Positions 18,000 to 54,162 of a stretch of 60,690 nt of DNA are shown piece after piece; the stretch's first letter is position 1, and the number at the start of each line of letters is the position of its first letter. The notes beneath the pieces were generated by a model. The model saw nothing but the letters and a program-made list of their open reading frames with translations, had not been told where the DNA came from and ran no database searches. Source of the DNA: an uncultured Gammaproteobacteria bacterium (GTDB lineage Bacteria > Pseudomonadota > Gammaproteobacteria > SZUA-140); assembly GCA_964425105.1 (NCBI GenBank), contig CAYRLE010000001.1:1-60690 (forward strand), given 5' to 3'. The translations under genes and the position numbers were made by a program.

Positions 18000-18019
18000 G
18001 GCAGCGCATAGAGGGCGCA

Positions 18020-20358: not shown

Positions 20359-20379
20359 CAGCTAAAACAGGCTAGTGTC

Positions 20380-35963: not shown

Positions 35964-36728
35964 ATGAGGCGATTGACTCGTAAAGATAGCGCTCTTTCGG
36001 GGTGCCCTTTTGCTGGCGAGAAGCTTGCTGCCTGGCTGGGAGACGCCGCTTCCCACAGTTTGCCCAGTGACGCGCGGCTTGCTATATATGAGGCTGGGGA
36101 TCCCGGCAGGGACAGGATAGAACGCTATATCGCAGAAATGTTCGCCAGAAATTATTCTGCCCGTCTACGGCACTTCAAGCCCCGCCTGTTGGCCATGTTC
36201 TCAGAGGCAAACGAAATCCTTGCTGCACTGGGCCTGAGAAATGCCGCTACAGAGCGCCTGTTCCTGGAAATTTACCTGGACACCCCCGTGGAACGCCGCA
36301 TGGCAACCCTCTGTGGCCGGCCGGTTGCGCGGCAGGGGATCGTGGAAGTCGGCAACCTGGCATCCCGGCATCCCGGCCGCGCCCGCTGTTTGTTCCAGGC
36401 GCTGACCATTCATCTTTACCGTAGTGGGGCTGAATGGGCCCTGTTCACCATGGCGCCTTTTTTGCGCAACATATTCAGGAAGCTGGGGATCCGCTTGTTG
36501 CACGTGGGGCCCGCCGACAAGGCGCGGCTGGGCAAGGCCGCCACCGATTGGGGCAGCTATTATGATGGCCATCCTCAAGTCATGGCGGTCAATGTGGAAC
36601 AGGCCTTCCTGGCTGTCATGGCCTATTACGAAGATGGCGAGGCGACCGCTCTGCAGGGGCCGCGCCTTACAGCCGTTGACGACAGTGTGGTGACCATGGG
36701 TCGTCAACTCCCTCCACAAAGCTCATAG
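35964..36728 (+). CDS. Thermostable-hemolysin family protein (PF12261-like, GNAT/LuxI-like fold)
   Basis: RIERYIAEMFARNYSARLRHFKPRLLA, IVEVGNLAS and LF.AL...L...G..W..FT...LRN.F.KLG resemble the Vibrio delta-VPH family. Confidence 0.7.
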   Translation: MRRLTRKDSALSGCPFAGEKLAAWLGDAASHSLPSDARLAIYEAGDPGRDRIERYIAEMFARNYSARLRHFKPRLLAMFSEANEILAALGLRNAATERLFLEIYLDTPVERRMATLCGRPVARQGIVEVGNLASRHPGRARCLFQALTIHLYRSGAEWALFTMAPFLRNIFRKLGIRLLHVGPADKARLGKAATDWGSYYDGHPQVMAVNVEQAFLAVMAYYEDGEATALQGPRLTAVDDSVVTMGRQLPPQSS

Positions 36729-36753
36729 CGACGCCGCGACGTCCCATCCCACG

Positions 36754-38268
36754 GTGAGGTCCATACTCCAGGCCCTGGAAATCCATGCCCGCCTGCATCC
36801 AGAGCAAGCGGCCGTGGAGGGCGCGGGTATCCGCTTGAGCTACCGGCAGCTGCATCAGGAGGTCGAGGCGATGGCAGGGCGGCTTGCCGGCAGTCCCCAC
36901 CGCATACTGGGGCTGTTGGCCGACAATGGCCCTGCCTGGCTGGTAATGGATCTGGCGGCTGCCCGTGCCGGGGTGGCGCTGGTGCCGCTGCCGGGATTCT
37001 TCTCCGCAGGCCAACTCGCCCATGTCATTCGCGATGCCGGCATCCGTGCCGTATACACGGATCATGAGCAGCGTCTTGCCGGCATGGCGGTGCAGCGCCG
37101 CCAGGCACTGCAGATCTGCGGCAGCCGTTGGCAACAAGTGGATCTGGCCACTCCTGCGGCCGCCGCACTGCCACCCGCCACCGTCAAGCTGACCTACACT
37201 TCCGGCACCACAGGGACCCCCAAGGGGGTCTGTCTGGGTGCGGAGTCACTGGCCATGGTGGCCGAATCGCTGCGCGCCTGTACTGCCATTGCCGCCGCTG
37301 ATCGTCACCTCTGCCTGTTGCCGCTGGCCACGCTGCTGGAAAACGTTGCCGGCGTCTACGTGCCCTTGCTGGCCGGCGCCTGCATCTGTGTGCCGCCTCT
37401 GGCCGAGGTGGGGATGGAAGGGGCCGCGGGGCTGGATGTGGAGCGGCTGTTGGTGGCCTTCCATCGATACCGCGCCAGTCGTGCGATTCTCCTGCCGCAC
37501 ATGCTCCAACTCCTGGTGGAGGCCTTGCGGCAGGGGGCGTCGCCACCGTCCACCCTGCGCTTTCTAGCGGTCGGTGGCGCACCGCTCGCCGCCAGCCTTT
37601 TGGGAGAGGCGGAACATTTGGGCCTGCCCGTCTATGAGGGCTATGGGCTCTCGGAGTGCGCCTCAGTGGTGGCGGTCAATCATCCCGCTGCCTGCCGGGC
37701 GGGATCGGTGGGCAGGCCGCTGCCCCATGTGCGGCTGGATTTCGCCGGCGATGGTGAAATCCTGGTGAGTGGCGCCTGCTTCCTGGGCTATTTGGGCGAC
37801 ACGGGCAGGGGGGATGGCAGCGGCCCTTTGCACACCGGGGATCTGGGATATCTCGACGCACAGGGTTATCTCCACATTACCGGACGCAAGAAGCATATCT
37901 TCATCACATCCTTGGGCCGCAATGTGGCCCCTGAATGGGTGGAGCGGGAACTGGTGCTGCACGCCGCCATCCGTCAGGCCGCCGTGTTCGGCGAAGGCTG
38001 TCCATGGTGTGTGGCGGTGGTGGTCAGGGCGCGGGACTGCGACGACCGGCAGGTGGCGGCAGCCATTGCCGCCGCCAACCGGACATTGCCCGACTATGCC
38101 CGGATAGGGGGCTGGGTGGCGGCGGTGGAGCCTTTTCTGCCAGCCAATGGCCAGTTGACCGCGACGGGGCGTTTGCGGCGCTCTGTCATCAGGGAAATCT
38201 ATGAACCGGCTCTGTCATTGCTGTACGGCAATGGACGAGAGCCATCTTACAAGGAGGATCAGGCATGA
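36754..38268 (+). CDS. AMP-dependent synthetase/ligase (acyl-activating enzyme)
   Basis: A3 motif TYTSGTTGTPKGV, GYGLSE, TGDLGYLDAQGYLHITGRKK. GTG start at 36754, 25 nt after the previous stop. Confidence 0.9.
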   Translation: MRSILQALEIHARLHPEQAAVEGAGIRLSYRQLHQEVEAMAGRLAGSPHRILGLLADNGPAWLVMDLAAARAGVALVPLPGFFSAGQLAHVIRDAGIRAVYTDHEQRLAGMAVQRRQALQICGSRWQQVDLATPAAAALPPATVKLTYTSGTTGTPKGVCLGAESLAMVAESLRACTAIAAADRHLCLLPLATLLENVAGVYVPLLAGACICVPPLAEVGMEGAAGLDVERLLVAFHRYRASRAILLPHMLQLLVEALRQGASPPSTLRFLAVGGAPLAASLLGEAEHLGLPVYEGYGLSECASVVAVNHPAACRAGSVGRPLPHVRLDFAGDGEILVSGACFLGYLGDTGRGDGSGPLHTGDLGYLDAQGYLHITGRKKHIFITSLGRNVAPEWVERELVLHAAIRQAAVFGEGCPWCVAVVVRARDCDDRQVAAAIAAANRTLPDYARIGGWVAAVEPFLPANGQLTATGRLRRSVIREIYEPALSLLYGNGREPSYKEDQA

Positions 38269-38951
38269 GTTTCTATCAAAATCTGCAAGAGGCGACGGCG
38301 GCGGAACGCGCCACCCTGCTGTCCTTGCCCTTCATCCAAGCAGGCGCCGCCGGCGAACTGTCCCTGCACAGCTATGTGGCCTTTCTCGGTCAGGCCTATC
38401 ATCATGTGAAGCACACCGTCCCTTTGTTGATGGCCTGTGGCGCGGCCCTCCCGTCCCGCCTGGAATGGCTGCGCAGTGCGGTGGCGGAATACATCGATGA
38501 AGAACTGGGACACGAGGAATGGATCCTCAACGATCTACGCAACTGCGGCGCCGATGCCGAGGCGCTGCGTGAGTCGCAGCCCCTGCTGGCCACGGAATTG
38601 ATGGTGGCCTACGCCTACGACACCATTCAGCGCCGCAATCCGGTCGCCTTCTTCGGCATGGTGCAGGTGCTGGAGGGCACCAGCATCCAGGTGGCGACCC
38701 GGGCTGCCGAGGCCTTGCAGGCCAGTCTCGGGCTGCAAGGCGCGGCCTTCAGCTATCTGAAATCTCACGGCTCCCTGGATATCAGTCATGTGGAGTTCTT
38801 CGAAAAGCTCATGAACCGTATCGACGATCCTCAGGATCAGGCGGATATCATTCACTGTGCGCAGGTCATGTACCGCCTCTACGGCGATATCTTCCGCTCG
38901 CTGCCATTGCAACTGCAGCACGAGGAGGTGGGCAATGCAGCTGCAGGATAG
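38265..38951 (+). CDS. Heme-oxygenase-like / iron-containing redox enzyme family protein (often annotated TenA family; putative diiron HDO)
   Basis: All-helical ~228 aa with ExxH (EELGHEEW), LEGTS and DxxH (HGSLDISHVEFF) motifs. ATGA overlap with the ligase gene. Confidence 0.65.
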   Translation: MSFYQNLQEATAAERATLLSLPFIQAGAAGELSLHSYVAFLGQAYHHVKHTVPLLMACGAALPSRLEWLRSAVAEYIDEELGHEEWILNDLRNCGADAEALRESQPLLATELMVAYAYDTIQRRNPVAFFGMVQVLEGTSIQVATRAAEALQASLGLQGAAFSYLKSHGSLDISHVEFFEKLMNRIDDPQDQADIIHCAQVMYRLYGDIFRSLPLQLQHEEVGNAAAG

Positions 38952-39768
38952 CCGTATCATCCTCACCGGCGCCTCCAGCGGCATCGGCCGCGCCCTGGCC
39001 CGGCGCCTGGCGGATGGCGGTGCCCGCCTGTTGCTGATCGGACGCCGACAGGAGGCGCTCAACGAAGTTCGTACGGCACTCGGCGACGGTCACCACACCC
39101 TGGCGGCGGATATCAGCACAGCACAGGGACGCCGTGAGGCGGTGGATGCCTGCCATGCCGTGCTGGGCGGAGTCGACGTACTGATCAACAATGCCGGCAT
39201 TTCCAGCTATGCCCTGTTCGACAGGGAGGATCCGGTGCTCAGCGAGCGCATCATCCAGACCAATCTGATGGCACCTATAGCGCTGACCAGGCAGGTGCTG
39301 CCCACCCTGCTGGCACAGGGGCGGGGGCAGATCGTCAACATCGGTTCCGTCTTCGGTGGCATCGGCTTTGCCTGCTTTGCCAGCTATTCCGCCAGCAAGT
39401 TCGGCCTGCGCGGTTTCTCCGAGGCCCTGCGCCGCGAACTAGAAGGCAGCGGTGTCGGGGTGACCTATGTTGCGCCGCGCGCCACCAGGACGGCCATCAA
39501 CAGCCCCACCGTCTACCGGATGATGGCTGCGTTGAAGATGAATCTCGATACCCCGGAGCAGGTGGCGATGCAGATCACCGCGGCGCTGACGGCACAGCGC
39601 AAAGAACGCTGCCTGGGGTGGCCGGAGAAGTTCTTCGTGCGCGTCAATGCCTTGTGGCCGCGCCTGGTGGACAAGGCCCTGCGCGGCCAGACCCGCGAGA
39701 TGAAGAGGATTTTGCAGGAATCCCCGGCAGGGGAAGACGGCAACGACTCCCAGGTTCGGACGCCCTAG
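38935..39768 (+). CDS. Short-chain dehydrogenase/reductase (SDR)
   Basis: TGASSGIGRALA, NNAG, S..YSASK catalytic motif. ATG 38935 follows GAGGAGG and overlaps the previous gene by 17 nt. Confidence 0.9.
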   Translation: MQLQDSRIILTGASSGIGRALARRLADGGARLLLIGRRQEALNEVRTALGDGHHTLAADISTAQGRREAVDACHAVLGGVDVLINNAGISSYALFDREDPVLSERIIQTNLMAPIALTRQVLPTLLAQGRGQIVNIGSVFGGIGFACFASYSASKFGLRGFSEALRRELEGSGVGVTYVAPRATRTAINSPTVYRMMAALKMNLDTPEQVAMQITAALTAQRKERCLGWPEKFFVRVNALWPRLVDKALRGQTREMKRILQESPAGEDGNDSQVRTP

Positions 39769-40721
39769 CCTGGAAAGAAGTCGATGGGATAGGTGACGCG
39801 GGTGACGGCCACCTCCATGGCGCCGAAGTCGAACATCTTGATGCGCGCCACCAGGCGCCGCTCAAGCTTCGGGTTGTCCAGTTCACTGCTAATGATTTCG
39901 CAGGCGCTGACCTTGCCCTCGGGGCTGATGGTCAATTGCAACACCACCTTGCCCTGCAGGGTGGAGTCGCGGCGCAGGGCGCGGTTGTAGAGGGCGTAGA
40001 GCTTGCCCTTGTTGCGGTCGAACACCAGCTGGATGTCCTCGTCGCTGCGCCGCGGCAGGCCGGCTGCCCCGCTGCGTCCGCTGGTGGGTCGCTGCTCGAT
40101 CTGCGCCAGCTTGCTCTGCACCCGTGACGTCTGATGGCTGCCCACCAGGCGGGTCTTGCCGGTGTCGCGGCTCAGCCGGGCCGTGTCGATGCCGCCGCTG
40201 GTCTGCGTGGCGCGCCGGGTGATGACGGCGCGCTGCACCTTGGGCGCCTTGCCAGCGGTGGATTTCCTCAGGGTCTGTTTGCGCACGCTGGCGATGGCGC
40301 TGTTTTTGCGCAGTGCCGCCAGTTCGCTGCTAAAGGCCAGCAGTCCGGAGCGCGCGGCCTTCTCGCGTGCCGCCGGGCGTGGCTTGGATGCCGGCTTGGG
40401 GGCGGGCTTTTGCGCCTTGGGAGGCTGCTTCTTGGCTGCTGTCTTCTTCTCCACAGGCTTGGGTTGCGGTCTGGGTTCCGGCTTGACCACGGGCATGGGT
40501 GGTGGTGGCGCTTTGTGCGCCATGAGCAGGCGGGCATAGCGTGGCGGCACGGCCGGCGCCAGGTCCTGCAGGGTCTGCGGGACGGGGAGCAGGGGCATCA
40601 CCACGGAGAACAGCAGGGCCAGGGCGGTGACCGCCGCCAGGATGCGCCGGAAACGCTGCTGGTCCTGCGGCGAGGCCGACCAGGGCAAGTCAGCGGCGTG
40701 ATAGAAGACTGTCGCCGTCAT
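39765..40721 (-). CDS. TonB-like energy transducer (AgmX/GltG-like C-terminal domain suspected)
   Basis: N-terminal anchor (ILAAVTALALLFSVVMPLL), a Pro/Lys-rich spacer (PPPPMPVVKPEPRPQPKPVEKK..KPAPKPASKPRP) and a C-terminal TonB_C-like domain (GKVVLQLTISPEGKVSACEIISS..VTYPIDFFP). ATGA overlap with the upstream exbD. Confidence 0.8.
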   Translation of the reverse strand: MTATVFYHAADLPWSASPQDQQRFRRILAAVTALALLFSVVMPLLPVPQTLQDLAPAVPPRYARLLMAHKAPPPPMPVVKPEPRPQPKPVEKKTAAKKQPPKAQKPAPKPASKPRPAAREKAARSGLLAFSSELAALRKNSAIASVRKQTLRKSTAGKAPKVQRAVITRRATQTSGGIDTARLSRDTGKTRLVGSHQTSRVQSKLAQIEQRPTSGRSGAAGLPRRSDEDIQLVFDRNKGKLYALYNRALRRDSTLQGKVVLQLTISPEGKVSACEIISSELDNPKLERRLVARIKMFDFGAMEVAVTRVTYPIDFFPG

Positions 40722-41215
40722 GCCTCTTCTCCGCCTTTCTGCATCACCGCCAACGAGACCTTGCCGTAGCGGGCCAGAGTACAGCTGACCATGACCTTCT
40801 TCAGCAGGCGGTAGGGGATCTCGCGGTCGCCCATGATAGTGACCTCGGGGCCGGCGCCGTCACGGTTCCGCAGGCGGCGGGCGGCCTGTTGTTCCAGTGC
40901 ATCCTGCAGGGCTTTGATGGCCGGGCCGCGCTCCGCCAGGGCCGCGGACACGCTGGCCACCTTGCGGCCCTGCACCAGGATATCCTTGTCGGTGACCAGG
41001 ACCACCACGGTTTCGCGGGGCTTCTCCTCGGCAATGGACTGGGGCAGCTCGATGGTCTTGGCGCTGGGCAATACCTCGACGTCGGAGGAATTCACCAGCA
41101 GGAAGAACACCAGGATGGTGAAGATGTCCATCAGTGACACCAGGTTGAGCGGTGCCGCGCGGCGGTTGCGTTTGTGGTGGCGCGCCATGCGCTGGGCGCG
41201 GCGGGATTTTTCCAT
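40718..41215 (-). CDS. exbD: ExbD/TolR-family protein (second of two paralogs)
   Basis: APLNLVSLMDIFTILVFFLL TM segment and a periplasmic domain. The start ATG sits 5 nt after AGGAGG, which overlaps the upstream TAA stop. Confidence 0.85.
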   Translation of the reverse strand: MEKSRRAQRMARHHKRNRRAAPLNLVSLMDIFTILVFFLLVNSSDVEVLPSAKTIELPQSIAEEKPRETVVVLVTDKDILVQGRKVASVSAALAERGPAIKALQDALEQQAARRLRNRDGAGPEVTIMGDREIPYRLLKKVMVSCTLARYGKVSLAVMQKGGEEA

Positions 41216-41225
41216 GTCCGCCTCC

Positions 41226-41735
41226 TTAGCGTCTGGCTTGTTTGATGGCGGCCGGCGGGGCGTCGCCGATGGAGATATCCGGGAACAGTTCGATCTTGAG
41301 GTGCCGCCCGCCCTGTTCCAGCACGGCCACGCGCACCGTGTCCATGACCTGCACCAGTGCGTCGTAGGGGATCTCGGGTTCCAGGAGCAGGGTGATGTCG
41401 GTCTTCTCCGGGTGTTGCGCCTTGATCTGCTGGAGCAGCGCAGAGACCCTGTCCAGGTCGTAGCCGCCATCCTTTTTTGCCACCACCACGGCGCCGCCGC
41501 CCTGTTGCGCCACCTCGATGGCGTCGCGGCGCAGAATCACTTCCAGGTGCAGGACCGGTTTCTGCGGCGCCGCACCTGCGGCGTCAGCGGGCAGGTTGAG
41601 TTCCAGGATGGCGATGCGCGAGAACACCGCGGTGATGAGCAGGAAGGGCACCAGGATCACCATCAGGTTCATGAAGGCGGTGATGTTCATCTCCGCCGGT
41701 TCCTGGAGGCGGCTGCTGCGCCAGCGGCGGTTCAT
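41226..41735 (-). CDS. exbD: ExbD/TolR-family protein (first of two paralogs)
   Basis: MNITAFMNLMVILVPFLLI TM segment and a periplasmic domain (ITLLLEPEIPYDALVQVMDTV). ATGA overlap with exbB. Confidence 0.85.
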   Translation of the reverse strand: MNRRWRSSRLQEPAEMNITAFMNLMVILVPFLLITAVFSRIAILELNLPADAAGAAPQKPVLHLEVILRRDAIEVAQQGGGAVVVAKKDGGYDLDRVSALLQQIKAQHPEKTDITLLLEPEIPYDALVQVMDTVRVAVLEQGGRHLKIELFPDISIGDAPPAAIKQARR

Positions 41736-42376
41736 CGCGCCGCTTCCGCCCGCTCGGTGACCATGTTGAGGAACTTCACCGAGGCCATCTCCAGGCTGTC
41801 CACCAGTTCCACGGTCTTGGTCTGGAGCACGGTGTGCATGAGCAGCAGGGGAATGGCCACGATGAGGCCGAAGGCGGTGGTGTTCATGGCCACCGAGATG
41901 CTGGCGGAGAGCATGTCGGCCTTCTCTGCGGGGTTGGCCGCCGACACTGCGGTGAAGGCCTGGATCAGGCCGATGATGGTGCCCAGCAGGCCCAGCAGGG
42001 TGGCGATGTTGGCGAAGGTGGCCAGGTAGTGGGTGCGTTTCTCCAGTTGGGGGATGACCTCCATCAGGCCCTCCTCCATGGCGGTGCCGATGTCGTCGCG
42101 GCGCCGCGCCGTGGTGGTGCGGCTCAGGCCGTAGTGGAGCACTTTGCCGATGGCCGTGCTGGACTTGGCCAGCAGGCTCCCGGCCCGCTTGAAGTCACCC
42201 TGGCGTAACAGCGGCTGCAGTGAACTCCACAGCTTGCGGTTGGTGGTGCGCGACAGGGTCAGGTAGACATAGCGTTCCACGGCGATGGCCACGCCCAGGG
42301 CGAGCACCAGCACGATGGGATACATGAACAGTCCGCCGGTCTGGAAGAACTGCACGATGGCGTTGTAGGCGTCCAT
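41732..42376 (-). CDS. exbB: MotA/TolQ/ExbB proton-channel protein
   Basis: Three TM helices, with the conserved C-terminal half (LATFANIATLLGLLGTIIGLIQAF...AMNTTAFGLIVAIP). AAGGAG RBS; starts 3 nt after the upstream stop. Confidence 0.9.
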   Translation of the reverse strand: MDAYNAIVQFFQTGGLFMYPIVLVLALGVAIAVERYVYLTLSRTTNRKLWSSLQPLLRQGDFKRAGSLLAKSSTAIGKVLHYGLSRTTTARRRDDIGTAMEEGLMEVIPQLEKRTHYLATFANIATLLGLLGTIIGLIQAFTAVSAANPAEKADMLSASISVAMNTTAFGLIVAIPLLLMHTVLQTKTVELVDSLEMASVKFLNMVTERAEAAR

Positions 42377-42379
42377 AAT

Positions 42380-42673
42380 TCACTCCTTGCTTGTTTGGCT
42401 GTGGGTTTCACGGTTGAAGGCATTGAAATAGTCCAGCTGGCGGCGCAGAACCTCGCGGTCCACGGGCTCCAGGGCCTGGTCGTAGAGGGTGCTGAAGGGG
42501 CGCACCACCATCTGGCCGGGCTCGGCTTGTTTCCAGGGCACGATGTAGAGCACCTTGGGCAGTTCGCGGTTGCCGATGATGGTGGTGCCTTCCATCTCGA
42601 TGGCATCTCCCGCCAGGGCGGCGCCTGCCAGCAGGGCGCTGCAGAGCAGCAGCGGCGCAGTGAGCAGCTTCAT
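42380..42673 (-). CDS. Small secreted protein (~97 aa) of unknown function, coupled to exbB
   Basis: Signal peptide MKLLTAPLLLCSALLAGAALA. Has an ELPKVLYIVPWK motif. ATGA overlap with the upstream TPR gene. Confidence 0.55.
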   Translation of the reverse strand: MKLLTAPLLLCSALLAGAALAGDAIEMEGTTIIGNRELPKVLYIVPWKQAEPGQMVVRPFSTLYDQALEPVDREVLRRQLDYFNAFNRETHSQTSKE

Positions 42674-43302
42674 GGCTGATTCTCCTCGTTGCGGGCTAGG
42701 GCCTGCAGGCGCTGGCGCAGGTCCACGATCCACAGCTGGATGGTACGCTCTTCCTTCCCGCTGAGTGCCTGGTAGCGCTGATAGTGTTGCAGGGCCAGTG
42801 CAGGCTGCTGCAGATAGAGATCGTAGAGGATGCCCACATTGAGATGGGCGTTGGCGTAGTCCGGGTCCGCCGCCAGGGCCTGTTCATAGGCGCGTCGCGC
42901 TGCCTGGAAGTCTCCACTCTGGCGTTGCAGGATGCCTATCTGGTTGTGGGCGGCGGCCAGCTTGGGGTTGAGGCGCGCGGCCGCCTGCAAGGACGAGAGC
43001 GCCGCAGCGCGTCGTTCCGTGCGTGCATAGATCAGTCCCAGGTTGAAGCGTGGGCCTGCCAGGTCGGGGCGGGCCTGGATCACTGCCTGCAGCGGGGCCT
43101 CGGCGGCGGCGTAATCGCCTGCGGCCATGGCGTCCAGGGCCTGGCGGTATTGCTGCGCCAGGGGAGGCGCCAGGGGCGCCGGCGCGGTGGCCTGCTCCTG
43201 TTCCAGGGGCAGGGTGCTGCAGGCCGTCAGCATCATGATCAGCAGGGCGCTGAAGACAGCCAGGGACGCATGGTGGAAAAACGCAGCGCCGTAATCCACC
43301 AA
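42670..43302 (-). CDS. TPR-repeat lipoprotein
   Basis: Lipobox IMMLTACS and three or four TPR units (RFNLGLIYAR.., AHNQIGILQRQSGDF.AR.AYEQAL..DP.YANAHLNVGILY). TTG 43302 or GTG 43299 after GAGGAA is preferred; the ORF-track ATG 43362 would overlap the upstream gene. Confidence 0.75.
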   Translation of the reverse strand: MVDYGAAFFHHASLAVFSALLIMMLTACSTLPLEQEQATAPAPLAPPLAQQYRQALDAMAAGDYAAAEAPLQAVIQARPDLAGPRFNLGLIYARTERRAAALSSLQAAARLNPKLAAAHNQIGILQRQSGDFQAARRAYEQALAADPDYANAHLNVGILYDLYLQQPALALQHYQRYQALSGKEERTIQLWIVDLRQRLQALARNEENQP

Positions 43303-43315
43303 TAAAATCCGTTCC

Positions 43316-46114
43316 TCAGTGAATGGCTTCGACAAGATCCTCGCTCCTTTCCGTCTTGGCATAGCGCACCGGCAGCAGTTCCGCCAGCTGCCGGAAGCTG
43401 GCCTTCACCCAGCGATCGTAGATGCCCTCGGCGGCGTGCCTGCTGTTGACCTCGTGCAGGGCGATGGCCTCCTCTTCGAAGGGGTAGGCCTGTTCCTCCA
43501 GCAGGATGTCGTACTGCTCCAGTTCCTCTTCCGAGAGGCCCTTGGGTCGCTGGGATTCCAGCAGGGCGCGGCTGAAATCGTGGTAGATCTCGGCGATGTC
43601 GAAGGTAGCGGCGGTGGCGACTTCGGCGATGCCGTAGTCAGCCGCCTGCTGGTAGGCCGCCAGCGCCTTTTCCATGCGCTGTTTCTTGGTCTTGAGGGAT
43701 TTCTCCAGCGGCGCCTTCAGGGCCACCTTGCGGAACGCCGCCAGTGCCGGCCGCGCCAGCACCAGGGCCGCCTGGGCGGCCAGTGAACGGCTGCGCTCGC
43801 TGCGCGCAGCACCCGCCGTACGGTCGGCCTCCATGATGCTGCGCAGCCAGTAGTGATAACGGCGCGTGTTGCCCACCGCGAGGTTGAGTTCCGCCAGGCG
43901 CTGACGGGCCTCCAGGGCCATGGCGAAGGGCTGGGGGAAGTCTTTCAGATAGCGCTTGTAGGCCGCCGCGGCCTTGCTCGTCTTGTCGGCCTTGGCATAC
44001 ATTTCCGCGGCGCGCCACAGGGCCTCGCGGCGCAGGGCAGGCTCGCCGCCGCCAGTGCCGATGCGTTCGAATTCCTGCGCCGCCGCCTCTGTACGGCCGC
44101 TCTCCAGGTAGGCGGTGGCCAGTTTGATGGGGATCTCCGCCTGCAGCGGGTGGCCGGGATGCTGCTTGCGGAAGGCCTCCAGCACTCGGATGGCCTGAGG
44201 CCATTGCTGCAGGGTGATGAAGGCGGCGGCGGCATCGTATTCGGCGGTGGCGCGGATGGCGGAGCCGGGGGCGGCCTCGGCGACTTGCAGGAAGAGCTCG
44301 GCGGCGCCCGCCAGGTCGCCGGCGGCGCGCAGGGCCTCGCCCTGTTTGTAGATACTGGAGGCCAGGCGCTCCACGATGGCTGCCCGTTTGTCGTCGCTGC
44401 GCGCCATGAGGGCCAGGGCCCGGCGGTAGGCCGTCTCCGCCGCCGGGAAGTCCTGGCGGTCGAAGGCGCTGTGGCCCAGCACCAGCCAGGCGGACAGGCG
44501 CAGGGGTGCAGCAGGGGCGGGCTGCATGGCCAGCAGGCGCTGCGCCACCACGGTGGCGGCTTCCTCTTCTCCCAGGGTGAAATAGTCCTGGGCCGCCTTG
44601 GCCAGGGCGGGCGCCGCCTCGGGGTGAGAGGGATAACGGTCAGCGAAGCGCAGGCTGCTGGCCAGGGCGCGGCGCTGCCAGCGGGTTTTCTCGGCATCCT
44701 TCAAGAGAGCGGCCCGTTTCTCGTAGGCGACGAGGGCGGCATGGGCCGCCTTGGCGCCCCGCGGATGGAGGGCATAGTCATAGGCGGTCTGTTCATAGGC
44801 CAGGGCCGCCTCGAGGTAGCGGTGATCCTCGAACAGGGCCTCGGCCAACAGGTAGTGGAGTTCCGGCGCATCTTGCGCAGTGGGAAAATAGGCCAGGTAA
44901 CGACGATACCAGTGCACGGCCTGTTCGTAGTCGGCATCCGTGGGGTTGTGCTGGGCGCGGGCATGGAAATGGCGCGCCAGTTCGGCGATGGTGGTTCTCA
45001 GATAGGCCACGGTGTCGGGTAGTTCCGCTCTTGCATGCTGTTGCCAGAAGGCCTGGTCCAGGCCGTATTGTTCAGCGAGGGCGATCTTGCTCTCCAGCAC
45101 CTGCGAGGGAAAGCCGCCATTCCGGTAGGCCGCGGTGGCGCGCATGAGAAAGGCCGGCGCCAGGCGCTCCATGGGGTTGCGGCGGGCATAGCCCTGGAAG
45201 GCGAGAGCGGCATCGTGAAAGCGTTCCTTGTCCAGGTACAACTCACCCAGGCTGGCGTAGACGCGGTCTTCGTAGCCGCTGCCGGGATGGGCCGCGAAAT
45301 AACTGTCGACACTGGCGGTGCCATCCAGATAGGAGAAGGCCAGGCTGACCACGCGCAGGGTGTCGTCCACCAGTTCCTGCTCTGCCCGGCTCAGTACCGC
45401 AGGCGGCTCGCTGTCCTTGGGGGTGGGTGCCAGCCTGCTGTCGAGGATAGAGAAGAAGGCCTCCAGGGCATTGCCGTAGGCCTCCTGCTTGAACAGGGCC
45501 CAGCCATATTTGTAAAGGGCCTGTTGATAAAAGGGGGTTTGCTCACCGAAGGCCAGCACGGCCTCGTAGGCGCGCCCGGCCAGCAGGTAGTCGCGGCGCA
45601 GAAAGAGCATCTCGGCGCGCCGGAAGTGGGCCTCGGCCACATAGGGGGAATCCGGATATTCCTCCACCAGGCGCTGCAGCGTATCGAGGGCCTCCTCCAT
45701 GCGCCCGCTGTCGTCATAGGCGCGGGCCAGCTGATAGAGCACGCGGTCGTTGCCGGCCTGCCGCGGATAAGTGGCCAGCAGGTCCCGGTAGAGGCGGATG
45801 GCAGCCTCGGGGTCGGCGTCTTCTTCGTGTTGGGCAGCGGTTTGGCTGGCCTCGTCCGCAACGCCTATTTCCAACTGCAGGTCGGCGAGGCGGCGCATGG
45901 CTTCCACCTCCAGGGGCGCGCCCGGGTGGGTAGCGAGAAATTCCCGGTAGCGCTGCAGGGCCTGCAGGCGGCTGCTTTCTATGGCACTGTCGGTCTCGAT
46001 CACGATGTTGCGTTGCTCCAGGTCTTTCAGGGTCTGCACTTGCTGGCGCTGCAGGGGCAGGCAGGCACTGAGCAGCAGGGCCATGCCAGGCAGCAGCCAG
46101 GTCTTGCTCCTCAT
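43316..46114 (-). CDS. Large (932 aa) periplasmic TPR-repeat lipoprotein (GltD/NfsD-like scaffold suspected)
   Basis: Lipobox LLLSACLP. TPR-like helical repeats run through essentially the whole length. ATGA overlap with the upstream gene. Confidence 0.8.
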   Translation of the reverse strand: MRSKTWLLPGMALLLSACLPLQRQQVQTLKDLEQRNIVIETDSAIESSRLQALQRYREFLATHPGAPLEVEAMRRLADLQLEIGVADEASQTAAQHEEDADPEAAIRLYRDLLATYPRQAGNDRVLYQLARAYDDSGRMEEALDTLQRLVEEYPDSPYVAEAHFRRAEMLFLRRDYLLAGRAYEAVLAFGEQTPFYQQALYKYGWALFKQEAYGNALEAFFSILDSRLAPTPKDSEPPAVLSRAEQELVDDTLRVVSLAFSYLDGTASVDSYFAAHPGSGYEDRVYASLGELYLDKERFHDAALAFQGYARRNPMERLAPAFLMRATAAYRNGGFPSQVLESKIALAEQYGLDQAFWQQHARAELPDTVAYLRTTIAELARHFHARAQHNPTDADYEQAVHWYRRYLAYFPTAQDAPELHYLLAEALFEDHRYLEAALAYEQTAYDYALHPRGAKAAHAALVAYEKRAALLKDAEKTRWQRRALASSLRFADRYPSHPEAAPALAKAAQDYFTLGEEEAATVVAQRLLAMQPAPAAPLRLSAWLVLGHSAFDRQDFPAAETAYRRALALMARSDDKRAAIVERLASSIYKQGEALRAAGDLAGAAELFLQVAEAAPGSAIRATAEYDAAAAFITLQQWPQAIRVLEAFRKQHPGHPLQAEIPIKLATAYLESGRTEAAAQEFERIGTGGGEPALRREALWRAAEMYAKADKTSKAAAAYKRYLKDFPQPFAMALEARQRLAELNLAVGNTRRYHYWLRSIMEADRTAGAARSERSRSLAAQAALVLARPALAAFRKVALKAPLEKSLKTKKQRMEKALAAYQQAADYGIAEVATAATFDIAEIYHDFSRALLESQRPKGLSEEELEQYDILLEEQAYPFEEEAIALHEVNSRHAAEGIYDRWVKASFRQLAELLPVRYAKTERSEDLVEAIH

Positions 46115-47997
46115 GGCTGCGCCACCTTCTTGTCCGCCGCCAGGTCGTAGATGCGTGCCAGGCCGAAGCGGGCCTGGACTTCATAGGCCCGCAGGCGTTC
46201 CTCGCGCTGGGCCAGGGTGCGCAGTACCAGAGTGCGCAGGTAGGCCTCGTGGTGTTCCTTGGCGGCGGTGACGCGCGCCTGCAGGTCTCCGAGGCGCGCC
46301 TGCAGCGTGGCGATACGCTGGTCGTAACCGGCGAAACCGCGCGGCGCCTGTTGCTTGGCCGCGGCCAGGCTGCGGCGTTGCTTGCCAGCTTCATCCAGGG
46401 CCGAATCCAGCGCCCTGAGGTGCTTGCGCAGCGTCCACAGCCGGGCCTTGTAGTCCTGGGCCAGGCGCCAGCGGTAGACACCTTGCAGCAGGCGCAGTTT
46501 TTCCCGCTGGGGGTTTAGGGCATCCTCTTCCCCGTGGCGCTGTAGCAGGGTGGCGGCCTTCTCCAGTCTGGCCTGGAGGCGCAGTTCCTTTGCCGTGGCC
46601 AGCGCCGTGGCATCTTCCCTGGCGGTGATGTCCCGCAGCTGGGCGGCATAAGCGTCGCGTTGGCGGCGCACCGCCGCCGGGTCCAGGCGCCGATAGCCGG
46701 CCTCGATGCGCGGTAGGCGCTGTTCATAGCCCAGGCGGCGCAGGGCCAGCATGTCCTGGAAGGCCGCGGTGTTGCGCTGCCAGCGTTCCAGGTCGCGCGC
46801 CAGGAAGCGCAGTTCGCGGTAATTGCGCAGCACGGCCTGAAATTCATTGCCCGCCAGCAGGCGCAGCAATTCGCTGTTTTGGGCCTCCGCCGGGGGATTG
46901 CGCAGCTGCCACAGCCAGCCGCGGCTCTTGTCCTCGTCCTTGCTCAGCAGCAGTTCGGCAATGCCCTGGTCACGAACCTCCTTGCCGAGGGCTCGGACGT
47001 GCTGCCGTTCCGCCACCAGGGCATCGACGGCCTGCTGGTAGCGCTGCGCTGCCTGGCCATAGACGCCGGCTTCCACGAGGGCATAGGGTATCGCGAGCAG
47101 GGCTTCCTGGACTGCAGGTTCCGTCACACTTCGCCCACTCAGTTCCTCCCAGGGCACCAGTGCCCGCGACAGTCTGCCAGCGGCGAATTCGGCCCAGCCC
47201 AGGCCCAGCAGGGCGGGAGCGGCGGACAGGCCCTGGAGACGGACCTGCTGCAGGCGCTGCGCGGCGTCTGCGGCCTGCCGGTCACGCAGATGGATATAGC
47301 CCAGGGCGAGATTGGCCTTGTCGCGCAGGGCCAGCAGTTCCTCGTCCTGTGTCTGCAGGGCGCCGACCTCGGCCAGTAGATCCAACCCTTCCGCGCGCTG
47401 TCCGTCGCGCACCAGGGCGACGCCCAGGTTGAAGCGGGCATAGGCAGCCCACAGGTGGGAGCGGGTGGGGGCGGCCAGCAGGCGCGCGGCACTTGTGTAG
47501 TCCCCCAGGTCCATCAACACCCGGCTGCGCAGCAGGCGGGCCTCGTCGCGCAGTTCCACGGGCAGCGCCTGCTCATGCACCTTGTCCAGGGCGGCGGCGG
47601 CCTTGTCGGCATAAGCGTTTCGCTGCCAGATCCTGGCCAGGTGGAACCATGCCTGATTGCGCAGCGCTGGGTCGTCATTTTGGTCCAGTAGCCGGGTGAA
47701 GACCCGTTCGGCCTGGTCATGGAGGCCATAGGAGAGCAGCAGGCCGCCTTCCAGCAATTCTGCCTCTACGCGGTGGTGAGGCAGCTGCCCGCGCTGCAGG
47801 GCAGCCTGGAGGCGAGTAATGGCGCTGAAATAGTCTTCCTGGTAAAAGTCGAACAGCACTTCTCCATAGGCCAGATCGCGCACCGCCTGGGGGTGGGGCG
47901 CGGCAGCGGCCTGCGGACCCAGCAGGGCCAGCATGAACAGCAGCAGGGAGAGATGCCGGTGGAGGCCCATGGCTCTGGGAGTAAGTTTCAGTCCCAT
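46111..47997 (-). CDS. Secreted TPR + coiled-coil protein (628 aa)
   Basis: Signal peptide (LSLLLFMLALLGPQAAA), an N-terminal TPR-like half and a C-terminal Arg/Leu/Ala-rich coiled coil. The start is ATG 47997 or ATG 47970. Confidence 0.7.
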   Translation of the reverse strand: MGLKLTPRAMGLHRHLSLLLFMLALLGPQAAAAPHPQAVRDLAYGEVLFDFYQEDYFSAITRLQAALQRGQLPHHRVEAELLEGGLLLSYGLHDQAERVFTRLLDQNDDPALRNQAWFHLARIWQRNAYADKAAAALDKVHEQALPVELRDEARLLRSRVLMDLGDYTSAARLLAAPTRSHLWAAYARFNLGVALVRDGQRAEGLDLLAEVGALQTQDEELLALRDKANLALGYIHLRDRQAADAAQRLQQVRLQGLSAAPALLGLGWAEFAAGRLSRALVPWEELSGRSVTEPAVQEALLAIPYALVEAGVYGQAAQRYQQAVDALVAERQHVRALGKEVRDQGIAELLLSKDEDKSRGWLWQLRNPPAEAQNSELLRLLAGNEFQAVLRNYRELRFLARDLERWQRNTAAFQDMLALRRLGYEQRLPRIEAGYRRLDPAAVRRQRDAYAAQLRDITAREDATALATAKELRLQARLEKAATLLQRHGEEDALNPQREKLRLLQGVYRWRLAQDYKARLWTLRKHLRALDSALDEAGKQRRSLAAAKQQAPRGFAGYDQRIATLQARLGDLQARVTAAKEHHEAYLRTLVLRTLAQREERLRAYEVQARFGLARIYDLAADKKVAQP

Positions 47998-48536
47998 TCC
48001 TTGACGATGAATTCGGGCTGCTGCCTGCTCTCCACGTCAACGATCTTCAGTTCCAGGTATTTGGGGCCCAGTTGTTTCTCGAAGGTGAGGGTCGCACCGC
48101 GGCGGTATTCCCGGCCCTCGGGGCCCAGCCCCGTGAAGAAGGCCACCAGTTCATGCTCACCAGCGCGCAGGTTGCCGAAGTAGATGCGCTGCACGCCGCC
48201 GCGGCGCAGGGCCTCCAGTTCACGACGGGTATAGAGATAATTGCTCACCACCTTGTCGTCGATTTTCACCTGCACGGCATCCAGCTTGAAGAATTCGCCG
48301 GTATCCAGGGACAGGAACACCGCCACCTGGGTGTTGGTGGGAAAGAGCAGTTCCTCCTCGAGGACGAACAACTCGCGGTTGATCTCCAGGATGTCTTTCT
48401 TGAGCGCCTGCACCTCGTCGTCCAGACTGTGGAAGTCCGCCGGCGCGGTGCTGTTTTCTGCTTGGGCCACGACGGAAAAGACACTGCCCAGAAGGAGCAG
48501 TGCCACAAGAGGGTAGAGCTTGATGCTGCGTTTCAT
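47988..48536 (-). CDS. Secreted protein (~182 aa): N-terminal short coiled coil + beta-rich domain, unknown function
   Basis: Signal peptide MKRSIKLYPLVALLLLGSVFSVVAQA, then DDEVQALKKDILEINRELFVLEEELLFP. First gene downstream of heptamer hairpin H1. Confidence 0.6.
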   Translation of the reverse strand: MKRSIKLYPLVALLLLGSVFSVVAQAENSTAPADFHSLDDEVQALKKDILEINRELFVLEEELLFPTNTQVAVFLSLDTGEFFKLDAVQVKIDDKVVSNYLYTRRELEALRRGGVQRIYFGNLRAGEHELVAFFTGLGPEGREYRRGATLTFEKQLGPKYLELKIVDVESRQQPEFIVKEWD

Positions 48537-48615
48537 GATGGGCCTCGCGGGCTGGTGGCGCATTTCGTGTTATAGAGTTTTTCGGCTGAATGATACTTTG
48601 GCTTGATTGAAAATC

Positions 48616-48692
48616 CGTGAGGGGTGAGGCGAAAAGTCCATTGGGGTCTATCAGTTTCCCGTAGGATTTCCCCTCACCCCTCACCCCTCACG
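48616..48692. repeat. Heptamer-built hairpin H1 (GTGAGGG x2 ... CCCTCAC x3)
   Basis: Left arm cGTGAGGGGTGAGGcgaaaagtcc; right arm ggatttcCCCTCACCCCTCACCCCTCACg. It ends 2 nt before the stop codon (48695-48697) of the DUF1501-like gene. Confidence 0.85.
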
Positions 48693-48694
48693 AA

Positions 48695-50293
48695 TCATAT
48701 CGTCCCACTGACAATGGGGTCGAAGGCAGTGAGGCTGTCCATGAGCGTGGCATTGCCCAGGCCGTGGCCGGGGAACAGGAGGGGGAAGTTGCCCTGTTCG
48801 CCGTGCAGGGCCAGGTAGTTGAGGATCACGGTCTCCACCAGCAGGTTGACGTTGTTGGCCGCCGGGCTGGAGGCGGTCTCCACCGAACCGTCGGAGCGAA
48901 AGTAGCCCAGTTGCTGGTGCTGCTCCGGCGCCAGGCTGTCGCCGCTGAACAACTGGGGACGGCCGCCGGGATGATAGACGAGGAAGAAGGCGGCGGCGGT
49001 GGAGGAGTTGTCGCCGGTCCACACGCCCTTGCCGCGGCCTTCCGAGGAATTGTCCACGGCTCCGTTGCTGGCCACGGAGCCGTCGCTGAACACGTAGAGC
49101 ATCAGCGGCACACCCACCCGCGCGGCGTATTCCAGGCAGGCGCCCATGCAGCGTCCGGCGCGCAGGTCGCGGATCTCGCCCACGGCTCGGTCGCCGGTAT
49201 GGTAGTCATAGCCGCCCATGGTGATGGTGCCGGCGCCGGCGAAGCCGTTGACGACCATTTTCATCACCGAGGCGGTCTTGCGGAACTCGCCATCGCTATC
49301 GAACTCCGCCTGGCTGAAGATGCCCGTAGGACCGACGATGTCGGGGTCCAGGGCGGGGTTGAGGGTGGAGGGGTCGCCGAAGCGGTCGGCGATGTCGGCG
49401 GCCTTGACGTAGCCGCAGCGCACCAGGTCCTTGATCACGGCATCCGCCGAGACCTTGGTGTCGACCTGCCCCAGCTTCATGTCGCTGATGCGTTCGATGG
49501 ATTCCATCACCGCCACAGCATCGGCCTGGTCCAGGACACCGATGAGTTGCCCGGTGTCCACCAGGCCGGTAACGTCCGAAGGGCGGTCCACCTTGGTGGG
49601 GCGCGCCGCCGCGTCCATCATGGTGGCCGGCGCCAGGGAGTTGCCGCCGGAGTCGGAGCTGCGTGAGCCGATGAGGCTCAGCAGGCTGCCGTCGGCGCCG
49701 GCGCGGTAGATGCCGTACATGGGGTTGTGGGGGTTGTTGCCGGTATCGTTGTCGGAGCGTGCCGGAATCACCGCGCCGTTGATATTGGCGCTGCGCCCGC
49801 CAGCCTTCTCCAGGATGCCACGCAGAAAGGCGCTGTCGGCGTGAAAGGACAGGCCCATATCGCTGTTGATGAAGTCGTTGAGGCCCGTCTGTGGATTGGT
49901 CAGGGGCGGGATCATGTCGCCCGGCAGGCCCTGTTTTCTGTAGCCGGCGCTGGTGAGGAAATCCAGCTGGCCGCCCTGCTTGCCCACCAGGACGTTGGAG
50001 CCGGCGATGTTGGCGCCGCCCGCCAGGTCGAAGCAGATGAAGGGGATCTTGCCCGCCCCCTGGGTGGCGATGCCGCAGCCGGTCTTCAGCGCCTCCAGAT
50101 CCGATGACAGGGCGGCATAGGCGGCGCGCGGGTTGGCAAACAGGCTGAGCACCGTGGGGGCGGTCACCAGGCCGAGGCCGGTGAGAAAGCCCTGGGCGAT
50201 GAACTCGCGGCGCGTCATGGGCCGCCGGTGATCGGGGTGGCGGAGGGGCTCGTCGGGTGACAGGAATTTGCGTCGTTTGGCCATGGTGGTCAT
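48695..50293 (-). CDS. Tat-signal periplasmic protein, DUF1501-like (sulfatase/phosphatase-fold family of unknown function)
   Basis: Twin-arginine motif (MTRREFIAQGFLTGLGLV), FICFDLAGGANIAG (compare the DUF1501 GG.D..N motif) and GGYDYHTGDR (compare GGWDTH). Confidence 0.7.
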   Translation of the reverse strand: MTTMAKRRKFLSPDEPLRHPDHRRPMTRREFIAQGFLTGLGLVTAPTVLSLFANPRAAYAALSSDLEALKTGCGIATQGAGKIPFICFDLAGGANIAGSNVLVGKQGGQLDFLTSAGYRKQGLPGDMIPPLTNPQTGLNDFINSDMGLSFHADSAFLRGILEKAGGRSANINGAVIPARSDNDTGNNPHNPMYGIYRAGADGSLLSLIGSRSSDSGGNSLAPATMMDAAARPTKVDRPSDVTGLVDTGQLIGVLDQADAVAVMESIERISDMKLGQVDTKVSADAVIKDLVRCGYVKAADIADRFGDPSTLNPALDPDIVGPTGIFSQAEFDSDGEFRKTASVMKMVVNGFAGAGTITMGGYDYHTGDRAVGEIRDLRAGRCMGACLEYAARVGVPLMLYVFSDGSVASNGAVDNSSEGRGKGVWTGDNSSTAAAFFLVYHPGGRPQLFSGDSLAPEQHQQLGYFRSDGSVETASSPAANNVNLLVETVILNYLALHGEQGNFPLLFPGHGLGNATLMDSLTAFDPIVSGTI

Positions 50294-50365
50294 ACCTCGC
50301 CCGTTGGTTCGTTATCGTTTGTCTTAGTATGTGTGGGTGCATGTGTTGCTGTATCCTCGTGGGAG

Positions 50366-50496
50366 GTAATGAGTGATGCGTGATGAGTAATGAGAGGAAG
50401 AACTGCTTTCCCGCCATGCCATCTGTCCTGTCCCTTCTCATCACCCATCACTCATCACCCATCACTCATTACCCATCACTCATTACTCACGTCACT
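50366..50496. repeat. Heptamer-built hairpin H2 (GT[A/G]ATGA x4 ... T[C/T]AC[C/T]CA x7)
   Basis: Left arm 50366-50393: gtaatga gtgatgc gtgatga gtaatga. Right arm 50441-50489: tcaccca tcactca tcaccca tcactca ttaccca tcactca ttactca. The right arm runs into the stop codon (50492-50494) of the LamG gene. Confidence 0.85.
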
Positions 50497-52984: not shown

Positions 52985-54162
52985 CAATCACCCATGCAGT
53001 AGACGGCGGCCTCGGCGAAGACCTGTTTCAGATTGTAGTTGCTGGCCTTGAAGGATGCGGTGATGGCTGCGATCTTGCTGCGGTCCGCACTGTTGCCTGG
53101 CTCGCGGAAGCACACGGCCTTGAAGACCTTCTTTACCTGGCAGCTGGCGAAGGCCGCGCTGTTCTCCAACTCCATGCCCATGCTCTTGGCGCCCTGGCCG
53201 CTGCCGGTCAGGGCACTGTCCCAGCCCAGCAGGGCATTGGGGCCGCTGCGCCAATAGTTGTCCCAGCGGTCGTCGGGGGTGATGTAGCCGTATTTGAAGT
53301 TGTCGGCGTTGATCAGGTATTTGGGCTGCACTGCGCCGGGGGTGTAGACGAGGCGCCCGGCGTCCTCGTCGTAGTCGTAGTAGGCATAGGCCTGGGTCAG
53401 CGGGTCCATGCCGCTGTGGCAGCCCACGCAGCTGTTGAGAAAGATGCGGCTGTCACCGCCGGGGCTGCGCGAGACGTCCTGGCGTATGCGGTCCGAGGGC
53501 CGGGTGTTGTCCTTGATCTGTTCCAGGTCGGTGCACAAATGGTTGAGCAGGGTGAAGCGGAACATGGCGCGGTTGGTGCCATCGATGAAAAAGGCCTTGG
53601 CGGCGGCGCGGGTGGTCATGACGCCCGCAGTGGCCGCGGCGGGGAGTCCGGTGAGCGCCGACTGGCTGCTGGGCACCAGCATGGCCTTGAGGTCGATGCC
53701 CTGGTTTTCCAGGGCCGCGTAGTGGTCGTTGTTGTCCACGGCATAGGGGGGCAGGCCCAGGGCCGGGTCGCCCACGTAGAGCAGATCAGCGGAGAGCAGG
53801 GTGTTGAAGGGCACGTTGTCGCGGACCATGCCGATCACTGTGGCGGTATAGTCGTTGAGAGGCGCGAAGACGGTCTGTTCCTCATTGGTCCAGGGGGTGA
53901 CGAAATTCTTCAGCGTGACGTTATAGAAGGCGCTGTTCTCCATGGCCGTGAAGGCGGCGTCCTCGGGACGGCCGGCGGCGATGTCCGCGGCCATGGCATC
54001 CAGTACCGCCGCGCTAGGCGGCACGCCGGCAAGGCGGTCGTGGAGACGCTTGGCCTGTTCGCGGTTGCCGGACCAGGCCGGGGAGGCAGCCAGTATCAGC
54101 AGCAAGGCGCTCAGGAAATAAAGCGTCAGGGCCGGCTGTTTGCTTGGTGTCGATGAATTCAT
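52984..54162 (-). CDS. Secreted CxxCH protein, DUF1588/PSD-family-like (Planctomycete-type cytochrome-associated domain)
   Basis: Signal peptide (LTLYFLSALLLILAASPAWS); FIDGTNRAMFRF.LLNHL.C; FLNSCVGCHSGMDPL. ATG at 54162 is chosen; the ORF-track extension to 54399 is not protein-like. Confidence 0.65.
   Translation of the reverse strand: MNSSTPSKQPALTLYFLSALLLILAASPAWSGNREQAKRLHDRLAGVPPSAAVLDAMAADIAAGRPEDAAFTAMENSAFYNVTLKNFVTPWTNEEQTVFAPLNDYTATVIGMVRDNVPFNTLLSADLLYVGDPALGLPPYAVDNNDHYAALENQGIDLKAMLVPSSQSALTGLPAAATAGVMTTRAAAKAFFIDGTNRAMFRFTLLNHLCTDLEQIKDNTRPSDRIRQDVSRSPGGDSRIFLNSCVGCHSGMDPLTQAYAYYDYDEDAGRLVYTPGAVQPKYLINADNFKYGYITPDDRWDNYWRSGPNALLGWDSALTGSGQGAKSMGMELENSAAFASCQVKKVFKAVCFREPGNSADRSKIAAITASFKASNYNLKQVFAEAAVYCMGD

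Follow-up and report, generated by a model that had tools for sequence, protein, structure and literature searches.

A nine-gene envelope operon of an uncultured gammaproteobacterium probably encodes a standalone Agl/Glt-type core complex

Which envelope machine is encoded by an operon that couples a TonB-like transducer and a putative motor of one ExbB-like and two ExbD-like proteins to a series of tetratricopeptide repeat (TPR) proteins? Such an operon is found on contig CAYRLE010000001.1 of an uncultured gammaproteobacterium, analyzed here as a window (the whole stretch of DNA) of 60,690 nt. It comprises nine co-directional genes on the minus strand (39765-48536), which we designate, from the first gene to the last, p182, p628, p932, p210, p97, ExbB-like, ExbD1, ExbD2, and TonB-like (Table 1). 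A first-pass annotation of this DNA had proposed a core of the kind used by the Agl/Glt and Nfs machines of Myxococcus rather than a TonB system for nutrient uptake. We conclude, with a probability of roughly 80%, that the operon encodes a standalone Agl/Glt-type core complex, a Tol/Ton-like machine that is driven by the proton motive force, spans the envelope, and is encoded in one tightly coupled operon. The gene order and sizes, the AgmX/PglI domain of the transducer, the non-canonical motor, and the lack of a conserved nearby receptor support this identification.

The core complex was defined as gltC, gltD, gltE, aglR, aglQ, aglS, and gltG (genes of "Group B"), accompanied by a single further small gene (Luciano et al. 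2011, PLoS Genet 7:e1002268; PMC3169522), the last having no homologs in Myxococcales (PMC3169522). In Geobacter and in every non-deltaproteobacterial carrier, it occupies a single locus, and its function was given as unknown (PMC3169522). The carriers are Gamma- and Betaproteobacteria and Geobacter, including Marinobacter, Hahella, Cellvibrio, Thioalkalivibrio, and Methylibium, and the published loci include Maqu_1595-1602, Tgr7_0536-0543, Mpe_A1224 with the genes after it, and CJA_3313-3319 (PMC3169522). A core protein is expected to fall in the monophyletic clade of its M. xanthus counterpart (MXAN_6862/6861/6860/4867/4870/4869/2541), and the authors did not expect gliding from the core alone (PMC3169522). 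A self-contained machinery present in numerous gammaproteobacteria, perhaps "a basal transport machinery", was also mentioned by Wartel et al. 2013 (PMC3858216). The first-pass annotation had cited the related core outside the myxobacteria correctly, and its single-locus arrangement is documented in PMC3169522.

When the genes are read in the published order on one strand, their products have 628, 932, ~210, 97, 214, 169, 165, and 318 amino acids (aa). The published sizes (PMC3169522 Table S3) are 550-692 aa for the GltC-like, 922-1016 aa for the GltD-like, and 162-263 aa for the GltE-like proteins, followed by a skipped locus tag, and then 205-272 aa for the AglR-like, 168-188 aa for the AglQ-like, 162-185 aa for the AglS-like, and 321-535 aa for the GltG-like proteins. 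The motor genes are preceded, on the same strand, by three TPR genes in the GltC-, GltD-, and GltE-like order. One MotA/TolQ/ExbB-like gene (PF01618) is followed consecutively by two distinct TolR/ExbD-like genes (both PF02472), and the motor adjoins a GltG-type transducer with an N-terminal transmembrane helix, a proline-rich spacer, and an AgmX/PglI-type C-terminus. The small additional gene within the locus is probably represented by p97. Pfam returned MotA_ExbB, two ExbD domains, a weak TonB_C, and TPR repeats, in line with the domain content that had been read from the translations.

The C-terminal domain of the transducer (residues 226-315) scored 68.1 bits with NF033768, the NCBIfam model of the AgmX/PglI C-terminal domain, which has a cut-off of 40. 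TonB-like also gave partial alignments to the NCBIfam models of GltJ (E 6.8e-12, residues 19-315, from the transmembrane helix to the end) and GltG (E 9.3e-11, residues 228-313), and aligned to both better than to TonB models. The TonB equivalog models reached at most 26 bits (cut-offs 265-448), Pfam TonB_C 21 bits, and TIGR01352 (tonB_Cterm) 30.9 bits, which is barely over its cut-off of 27.1. A sequence search of the PDB with TonB-like as the query found only low-complexity histone-tail matches. The long Pro/Lys spacer described in the first-pass annotation is visible in the translation at approximately residues 70-125. In addition, a cytoplasmic LPW motif before the single transmembrane helix (~24-49) and an SGGI...SR segment before the C-terminal domain are conserved.

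The ExbB-like protein scored 99 bits with PF01618 and has about three hydrophobic, transmembrane-like segments. Its scores with the NCBIfam models of TolQ (62 bits, cut-off 221) and ExbB (38 bits, cut-offs 206 and 135) were well below threshold, and in the PDB it matched TolQ (36 bits) and ExbB (32 bits) equally weakly and in the C-terminal half only. The two ExbD paralogs gave at most 28 bits with TolR (cut-off 127) and at most 25 bits with ExbD (cut-offs 123-216). We also built hidden Markov models (HMMs) of the motor families from 70 relatives and scored them on the Escherichia coli proteins. The ExbB-like family HMM gave 46 bits on TolQ and 37 bits on ExbB. The ExbD1 and ExbD2 families scored 230-280 bits on themselves and ~55 bits on each other; on E. 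coli ExbD or TolR they scored 14-37 bits, below the cross score of the two paralogs. These scores set the motor apart from canonical ExbBD and TolQR systems. The position of the canonical transmembrane Asp is Asn23 in ExbD1 here, and is Asn in 38 and Asp in 32 of the 70 sequences. Asp30 in the transmembrane segment of ExbD2 is invariant (70/70). Because of this pattern, only one subunit of the stator may carry protons in roughly half of the family.

The arrangement of the operon is widely conserved. We scanned one genome per species with an alignment of p932 relatives as the query; at least 600 stretches matched. Of these, at least 581 are candidates that carry a gene for a p932 relative in a species-representative genome. 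The comparisons of loci described in this paper refer to the best 80 of the at least 600 matched stretches, which come from Chromatiaceae, Acidiferrobacterales, Steroidobacteraceae, Woeseiaceae, and Burkholderiales (including Methylibium). All of the 80 loci keep the nine genes colinear on one strand, and the set is complete in 50 of the 54 that have sufficient flanking sequence; therefore, the arrangement is not a matter of chance. Start overlaps are found repeatedly in the family, with ATGA forming the junction of p628 and p932 in 35/73 loci and that of ExbD1 and ExbD2 in 42/69. One Methylibium locus (L041), from a metagenome-assembled genome (MAG), matches the listing of M. petroleiphilum PM1, a member of the published clade (PMC3169522), in both synteny and gene sizes. 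Gene content, gene order, domain families, and conservation of the operon are direct observations.

Among the matches listed, the closest protein is 92% identical and comes from a MAG named "Gammaproteobacteria bacterium", and the closest genome is a Chromatiaceae MAG with 52% identity (L001). At 13500-20445, L001 carries p182, p628, p932, p210, and p97 together with the upstream n831/n532 block, and has ribonucleotide reductase genes in place of the motor and transducer genes. Because the TPR half occurs there without the motor half, the scaffold half can exist apart from the motor half. A tblastn search of plasmids with p932 gave no match.

The TPR proteins of the operon amount together to ~1770 aa. 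p628 shows weak TPR_16 and YbgF-type matches in its N-terminal half, and its Arg/Leu/Gln-rich C-terminal half is long and presumably helical; it was found in 77/80 loci with a median identity of 39%. p932 combines a BamD-like N-terminal lipoprotein module with several CpoB/YbgF-like TPR modules, and all 24 relatives tested matched the YbgF, BamD, and CpoB models. A protein search returned more than 3000 full-length homologs of p932, and homologs carry the name "tol-pal system YbgF family protein" in NCBI. p210 was found in 75/80 loci.

Several points weigh against an Agl/Glt-type core. p932 passes the NCBIfam YbgF model (tol_pal_ybgF, 114 bits against a cut-off of 90), which fits a Tol-like machine equally well. 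p210 scored 42.8 bits with the GltE model (cut-off 225), no better than with NlpI, Tgl, and PilW, and no GltC or GltD model matched p628, p932 (NCBIfam, E up to 10), or the 24 p932 relatives. The presumed homology of the TPR proteins and the presumed clade of the motor are taken from PMC3169522 and from synteny. Furthermore, TonB and TolA bind their motors through a conserved His in the transmembrane helix (PMC12204202), and the conservation profile of the TonB-like helix contains no conserved His. GltA/B/H, the outer-membrane partners of GltC in Myxococcus, are absent from the operon, which leaves its outer-membrane end undefined. None of the Group A components (the outer-membrane barrels and lipoprotein GltA/B/H/K, GltI/J, and GltF) is encoded in the operon, the flanking outer-membrane barrels (57218-58581) not having been compared with GltA/B. 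Finally, literature searches found no reported function for the Agl/Glt core outside gliding bacteria, and a search with the locus tags of the published core genes found no paper.

The matches of p932 raise the question of whether the operon is a paralog of Tol-Pal, in which a TolQ/TolR-type motor and a TolA-like transducer would work with TPR lipoproteins resembling CpoB/YbgF and BamD. Such a system would tether or remodel both the outer membrane and the peptidoglycan, as in division or under envelope stress, and would have no role in transport. The sole question that it poses is one of envelope maintenance. The YbgF score of p932, the YbgF, BamD, and CpoB matches of its relatives, and the NCBI name of its homologs agree with this explanation, as does the slightly higher score of the ExbB-like family on TolQ than on ExbB. 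It also overlaps in part with an Agl/Glt-type core, since Agl motors are themselves Tol-like. However, no TolB or Pal homolog was found in the operon or its conserved flanks, the scores with the TolQ and TolR models are far under the cut-offs, and there are two different TolR-like genes instead of one. The C-terminus of the transducer is of the AgmX/PglI type, and its family HMM fails to detect E. coli TolA. A Tol-Pal-like paralog, the main rival explanation, is therefore improbable, in our estimation.

We regard as very improbable an accessory TonB-ExbB-ExbD uptake system of the TonB2/Ttp type, which would energize receptors encoded elsewhere and to which the TPR genes would be accessory. The Pfam matches to MotA_ExbB, ExbD, and TonB_C, the marginal TIGR01352 score, and the higher scores of the ExbD-like family HMMs on E. 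coli ExbD than on TolR are what such a system would give. However, no receptor-sized family is conserved within 10 kb of the 80 loci, as judged from the flank families, TonB-dependent receptor models not having been scanned directly. The scores with the ExbB and ExbD equivalog models are a small fraction of the cut-offs, the transducer helix lacks the His of TonB, no TtpB/TtpC-type gene is present, and two ExbD paralogs and the long TPR proteins belong to the same translationally coupled unit, in a locus that matches the published Agl/Glt core. The TonB2/Ttp and Bat-operon readings were rejected because Pfam and NCBIfam revealed no genes of the TtpB/TtpC or BatA-D type.

Two small secreted proteins complete the putative Agl/Glt-type core. 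p182 has no Pfam or NCBIfam family, and none of its at least 7906 homologs has a Pfam domain. An AlphaFold2 model (mean confidence, pLDDT, of 81, and >90 in the sandwich) consists of a long helix (38-64) and a beta-sandwich (70-181); a Foldseek search of the PDB with this model found generic Ig-like sandwiches only, none of them a significant match (TM-score ≤0.37, E ≥1.6e-3). The gene lies immediately 5' of the GltC-like gene in 70/80 loci, and its median identity of 63% is the highest of the nine genes, followed by 59% for ExbB-like. p182 is thus a member of the operon unit and the best conserved one. In some NCBI records of MAGs, p182 homologs (P0132, P0148, P0165, and P0202) carry the name "AraC family transcriptional regulator". 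Because p182 has a signal peptide and a predicted beta-sandwich, this name is probably a propagated misannotation.

p97 was found in 74/80 loci, and its 892 homologs have essentially no Pfam domain. The alignment shows an invariant motif, G-N-R-E-L-P-K-V-L-Y-I-V-P-W, followed by P-V-D-R-E-V and a C-terminal helix. The AlphaFold2 model, of low confidence (pLDDT 64), has no globular fold and shows a helix at 73-95. In every published core, one locus tag is missing from the listing between the gltE-like gene and the aglR-like gene (PMC3169522 Table S3), and from this gap we infer that p97 is the published "additional gene". The first-pass annotation had listed a small GltF among the parts of the Myxococcus machines that the array recalls. 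This comparison finds no support in the sequence: gltF is restricted to Myxococcales and Bdellovibrionales (PMC3169522), and no GltF model matched p932, p628, p97, or p182 (NCBIfam, E up to 10). In the G1 cluster of M. xanthus, gltF follows directly after gltE. A published model of GltF is mostly unstructured, with a strand (94-111) that pairs with the C-terminal domain of GltG and a helix (133-147) in a groove of GltC (PMC11761067). p97 is largely disordered and has a similar layout, with a conserved strand-like motif and a C-terminal helix ~25 residues later. Given the restricted distribution of gltF (PMC3169522), p97 can be at most a counterpart of GltF in position and architecture, and we treat the resemblance hypothetically, as one of position and predicted architecture.

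Taken further, these observations permit a speculative proposal, to which we give less than even odds, that the ancestral core was a nine-protein machine. In such a machine, p97 would be a diverged counterpart of GltF, and p182 would form an outer-membrane-proximal or cargo-binding end that was later replaced by GltA/B/H/K in Myxococcus. If p97 is a diverged GltF, GltF would not be a myxobacterial invention.

A working mechanism can be outlined for the Agl/Glt-type core, in which stoichiometry, contacts, and cargo are proposed by analogy with related machines. The AglR-like channel protein would form the inner-membrane stator with both of the dissimilar TolR-like proteins, in a 5:2 stoichiometry as in TolQR and ExbBD, and only the second TolR-like subunit would keep a protonatable Asp here. 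The stator may act on the single transmembrane helix of the GltG-like transducer, whose Pro/Lys-rich spacer would cross the periplasm. Through its AgmX/PglI-type C-terminal domain and the conserved segment preceding that domain, the transducer would dock on the large GltD-like lipoprotein, a scaffold to which the GltE-like lipoprotein and the GltC-like protein would also be attached. This docking scheme is modeled on a published AlphaFold model of the periplasmic complex of Myxococcus, which gives the contacts GltG-GltD, GltE-GltD, and GltF-GltC/GltG (PMC11761067). p97 may serve as a GltF-like connector through its strand motif and C-terminal helix, and p182 as a further conserved periplasmic subunit. 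The output would be mechanical work on a target in the envelope, such as an outer-membrane-associated cargo or polymer, and not the opening of TonB-dependent receptors.

The fine structure of the operon is largely as first described. Direct reading of the open reading frames gave the same nine genes on the minus strand, the four ATGA overlaps (40718-21, 41732-35, 42670-73, and 46111-14), and the two TPR lipoproteins, which have the lipoboxes LSAC (p932) and LTAC (p210). The remaining gaps, given as 3-13 nt, measure 3, 10, and 13 nt, with AAGGAG, GGAGG, or GAGGAA fused to the preceding stop codon. The reported 10-nt overlap of p182 and p628 (47988-47997) exists if p628 starts at ATG 47997; however, that start is uncertain because AAGGA directly abuts the ATG (spacing 0), and an alternative ATG is located at 47970. 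The start of p182 at ATG 48536 has GAGG 6 nt upstream, and a longer start (191 aa) at 48563 is without a ribosome-binding site. The start of ExbD2 at ATG 41215 is preceded by AAGGAGG.

Table 1. Coordinates of the operon, its leader, and the neighboring genes in the window
Feature	Position	Strand	Remarks
p182: secreted protein, 182 aa	47988-48536	minus	first gene of the operon; signal peptide
p628: secreted TPR protein, 628 aa	46111-47997	minus	GltC-like by position and size
p932: TPR lipoprotein, 932 aa	43316-46114	minus	LSAC lipobox; GltD-like by position and size
p210: small TPR lipoprotein, ~210 aa	42670-43302	minus	LTAC lipobox; GltE-like by position and size
p97: small secreted protein, 97 aa	42380-42673	minus	gltF position
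ExbB-like: AglR-like MotA/TolQ/ExbB channel subunit, 214 aa	41732-42376	minus	PF01618
ExbD1: first TolR/ExbD-like paralog, 169 aa	41226-41735	minus	PF02472; AglQ position
ExbD2: second TolR/ExbD-like paralog, 165 aa	40718-41215	minus	PF02472; AglS position
TonB-like: GltG-like transducer, 318 aa	39765-40721	minus	AgmX/PglI-type C-terminal domain
Leader between the upstream gene and p182	48564-48694	minus	holds a REP-like inverted repeat with GTGAGGGGTGAGG arms
532-aa Tat-signal protein	48695-50293	minus	no Pfam or NCBIfam family
831-aa lipoprotein	50492-52987	minus	LamG domain; two CxxCH motifs
471-aa protein	52984-54399	minus	no family
865-aa protein	54523-57120	plus	hydrazine-synthase-alpha middle domain; weak match to PD40 repeats, below threshold
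Two small outer-membrane beta-barrel proteins	57218-58581	plus	one with SH3 domain
TlpA/ResA-like periplasmic thiol-disulfide oxidoreductase	58681-59202	plus	
DUF3570 protein	59398-60552	plus	
Thermostable-hemolysin-family protein (PF12261), AMP-dependent ligase, haem-oxygenase-like iron redox enzyme (PF14518), and short-chain dehydrogenase	35964-39768	plus	

The leader upstream of p182 may mark the boundary of the operon. A promoter-like match (48723-48694) is located just upstream of it, mostly inside the end of the upstream gene, and an Rfam search of 39000-50600 gave no match. An inverted repeat with GTGAGGGGTGAGG arms, resembling repetitive extragenic palindromic (REP) elements, occurs at 48617-48691 and again at 60639-60687 after the DUF3570 gene (5 matches against 0.14 expected). 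Because these repeats bracket a 12-kb segment with a gene order unlike that of related loci, an inversion or rearrangement between them is possible.

The families conserved in the 10-kb flanks of the 80 loci are a TlpA-like redoxin, ApbE, DUF3570, PEP carboxylase, a Kef antiporter, a LamG/cytochrome-like family, and a block of three unknown proteins. The block of 532-, 831-, and 471-aa proteins also lies upstream of the operon in 21-24 of the 80 related loci, which belong to several families. In ~35 related loci, the redoxin gene directly precedes p182 on the strand of the operon, and ApbE is often close by; here, a distance of 10 kb separates it from the operon, and it is on the opposite strand. 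On the other side, the four-gene set runs convergently toward the operon, with a 4-nt overlap between its last stop and the stop region of TonB-like. Elsewhere, its dehydrogenase adjoins the operon in 1/80 loci and its other three genes in 0/80.

The present results show how common the Agl/Glt-type core is and how rigid its order, with p932 relatives in at least 581 stretches and the same order kept in all of the 80 loci examined, and they add two conserved small proteins, p182 and p97, to its parts list. Its function should be testable in cultured organisms because the carriers include Aquabacterium sp. A7-Y and Peristeroidobacter agariperforans, both found among the related loci, and the published Cellvibrio and Marinobacter strains. 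If the nine-protein reading holds true, the core would, together with the Asp/Asn asymmetry of the TolR-like subunits, provide a minimal and widespread system for dissecting force transduction by the gliding motor.

Comparison with known systems places the operon as follows. With TonB-ExbB-ExbD systems, including TonB2/Ttp of Vibrio, it shares the motor superfamily and a weakly detected TonB-fold C-terminal domain, whereas the association with receptors, TtpB/TtpC, and the conserved His are missing and the scores lie far under the family cut-offs. With Tol-Pal (TolQRA-TolB-Pal-CpoB), it shares a proton-driven stator superfamily, a periplasm-spanning transducer, and CpoB/YbgF-type TPR modules. 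It differs from Tol-Pal by the absence of TolB/Pal, by two distinct TolR-like subunits, by another C-terminal family of the transducer, and by ~1770 aa of TPR proteins in comparison with a single 263-aa CpoB.

The Agl-Glt gliding and Agl-Nfs spore-coat machines of Myxococcus xanthus have in common with the operon a motor made of one TolQ-like protein and two TolR-like proteins, a TonB-like transducer that ends in an AgmX/PglI C-terminal domain, three TPR proteins (large, medium, and small), and a small unstructured protein after gltE. In contrast to the operon, they also possess the GltA/B/H beta-barrels, GltK, CglB, GltI, GltJ, AglZ, and MglA-coupled cytoplasmic parts. The transducer has ~650 aa in Myxococcus and 318 aa here, and the genes of Myxococcus are distributed over the separate G1, G2, and M1 clusters instead of one operon. 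The closest counterpart is the Agl/Glt core itself (PMC3169522), with which the operon shares gene order, strand, size classes, the single locus, an unnamed small gene that separates the gltE-like gene from the aglR-like gene, and a GltG-type transducer of ~320 aa without a cytoplasmic FHA extension. These likenesses support the view that the operon is a further copy of the published core complex, to which our additions are incremental. The source is a different, uncultured organism, and whereas the published text describes seven genes and one extra, p182 is counted here as the ninth conserved member.

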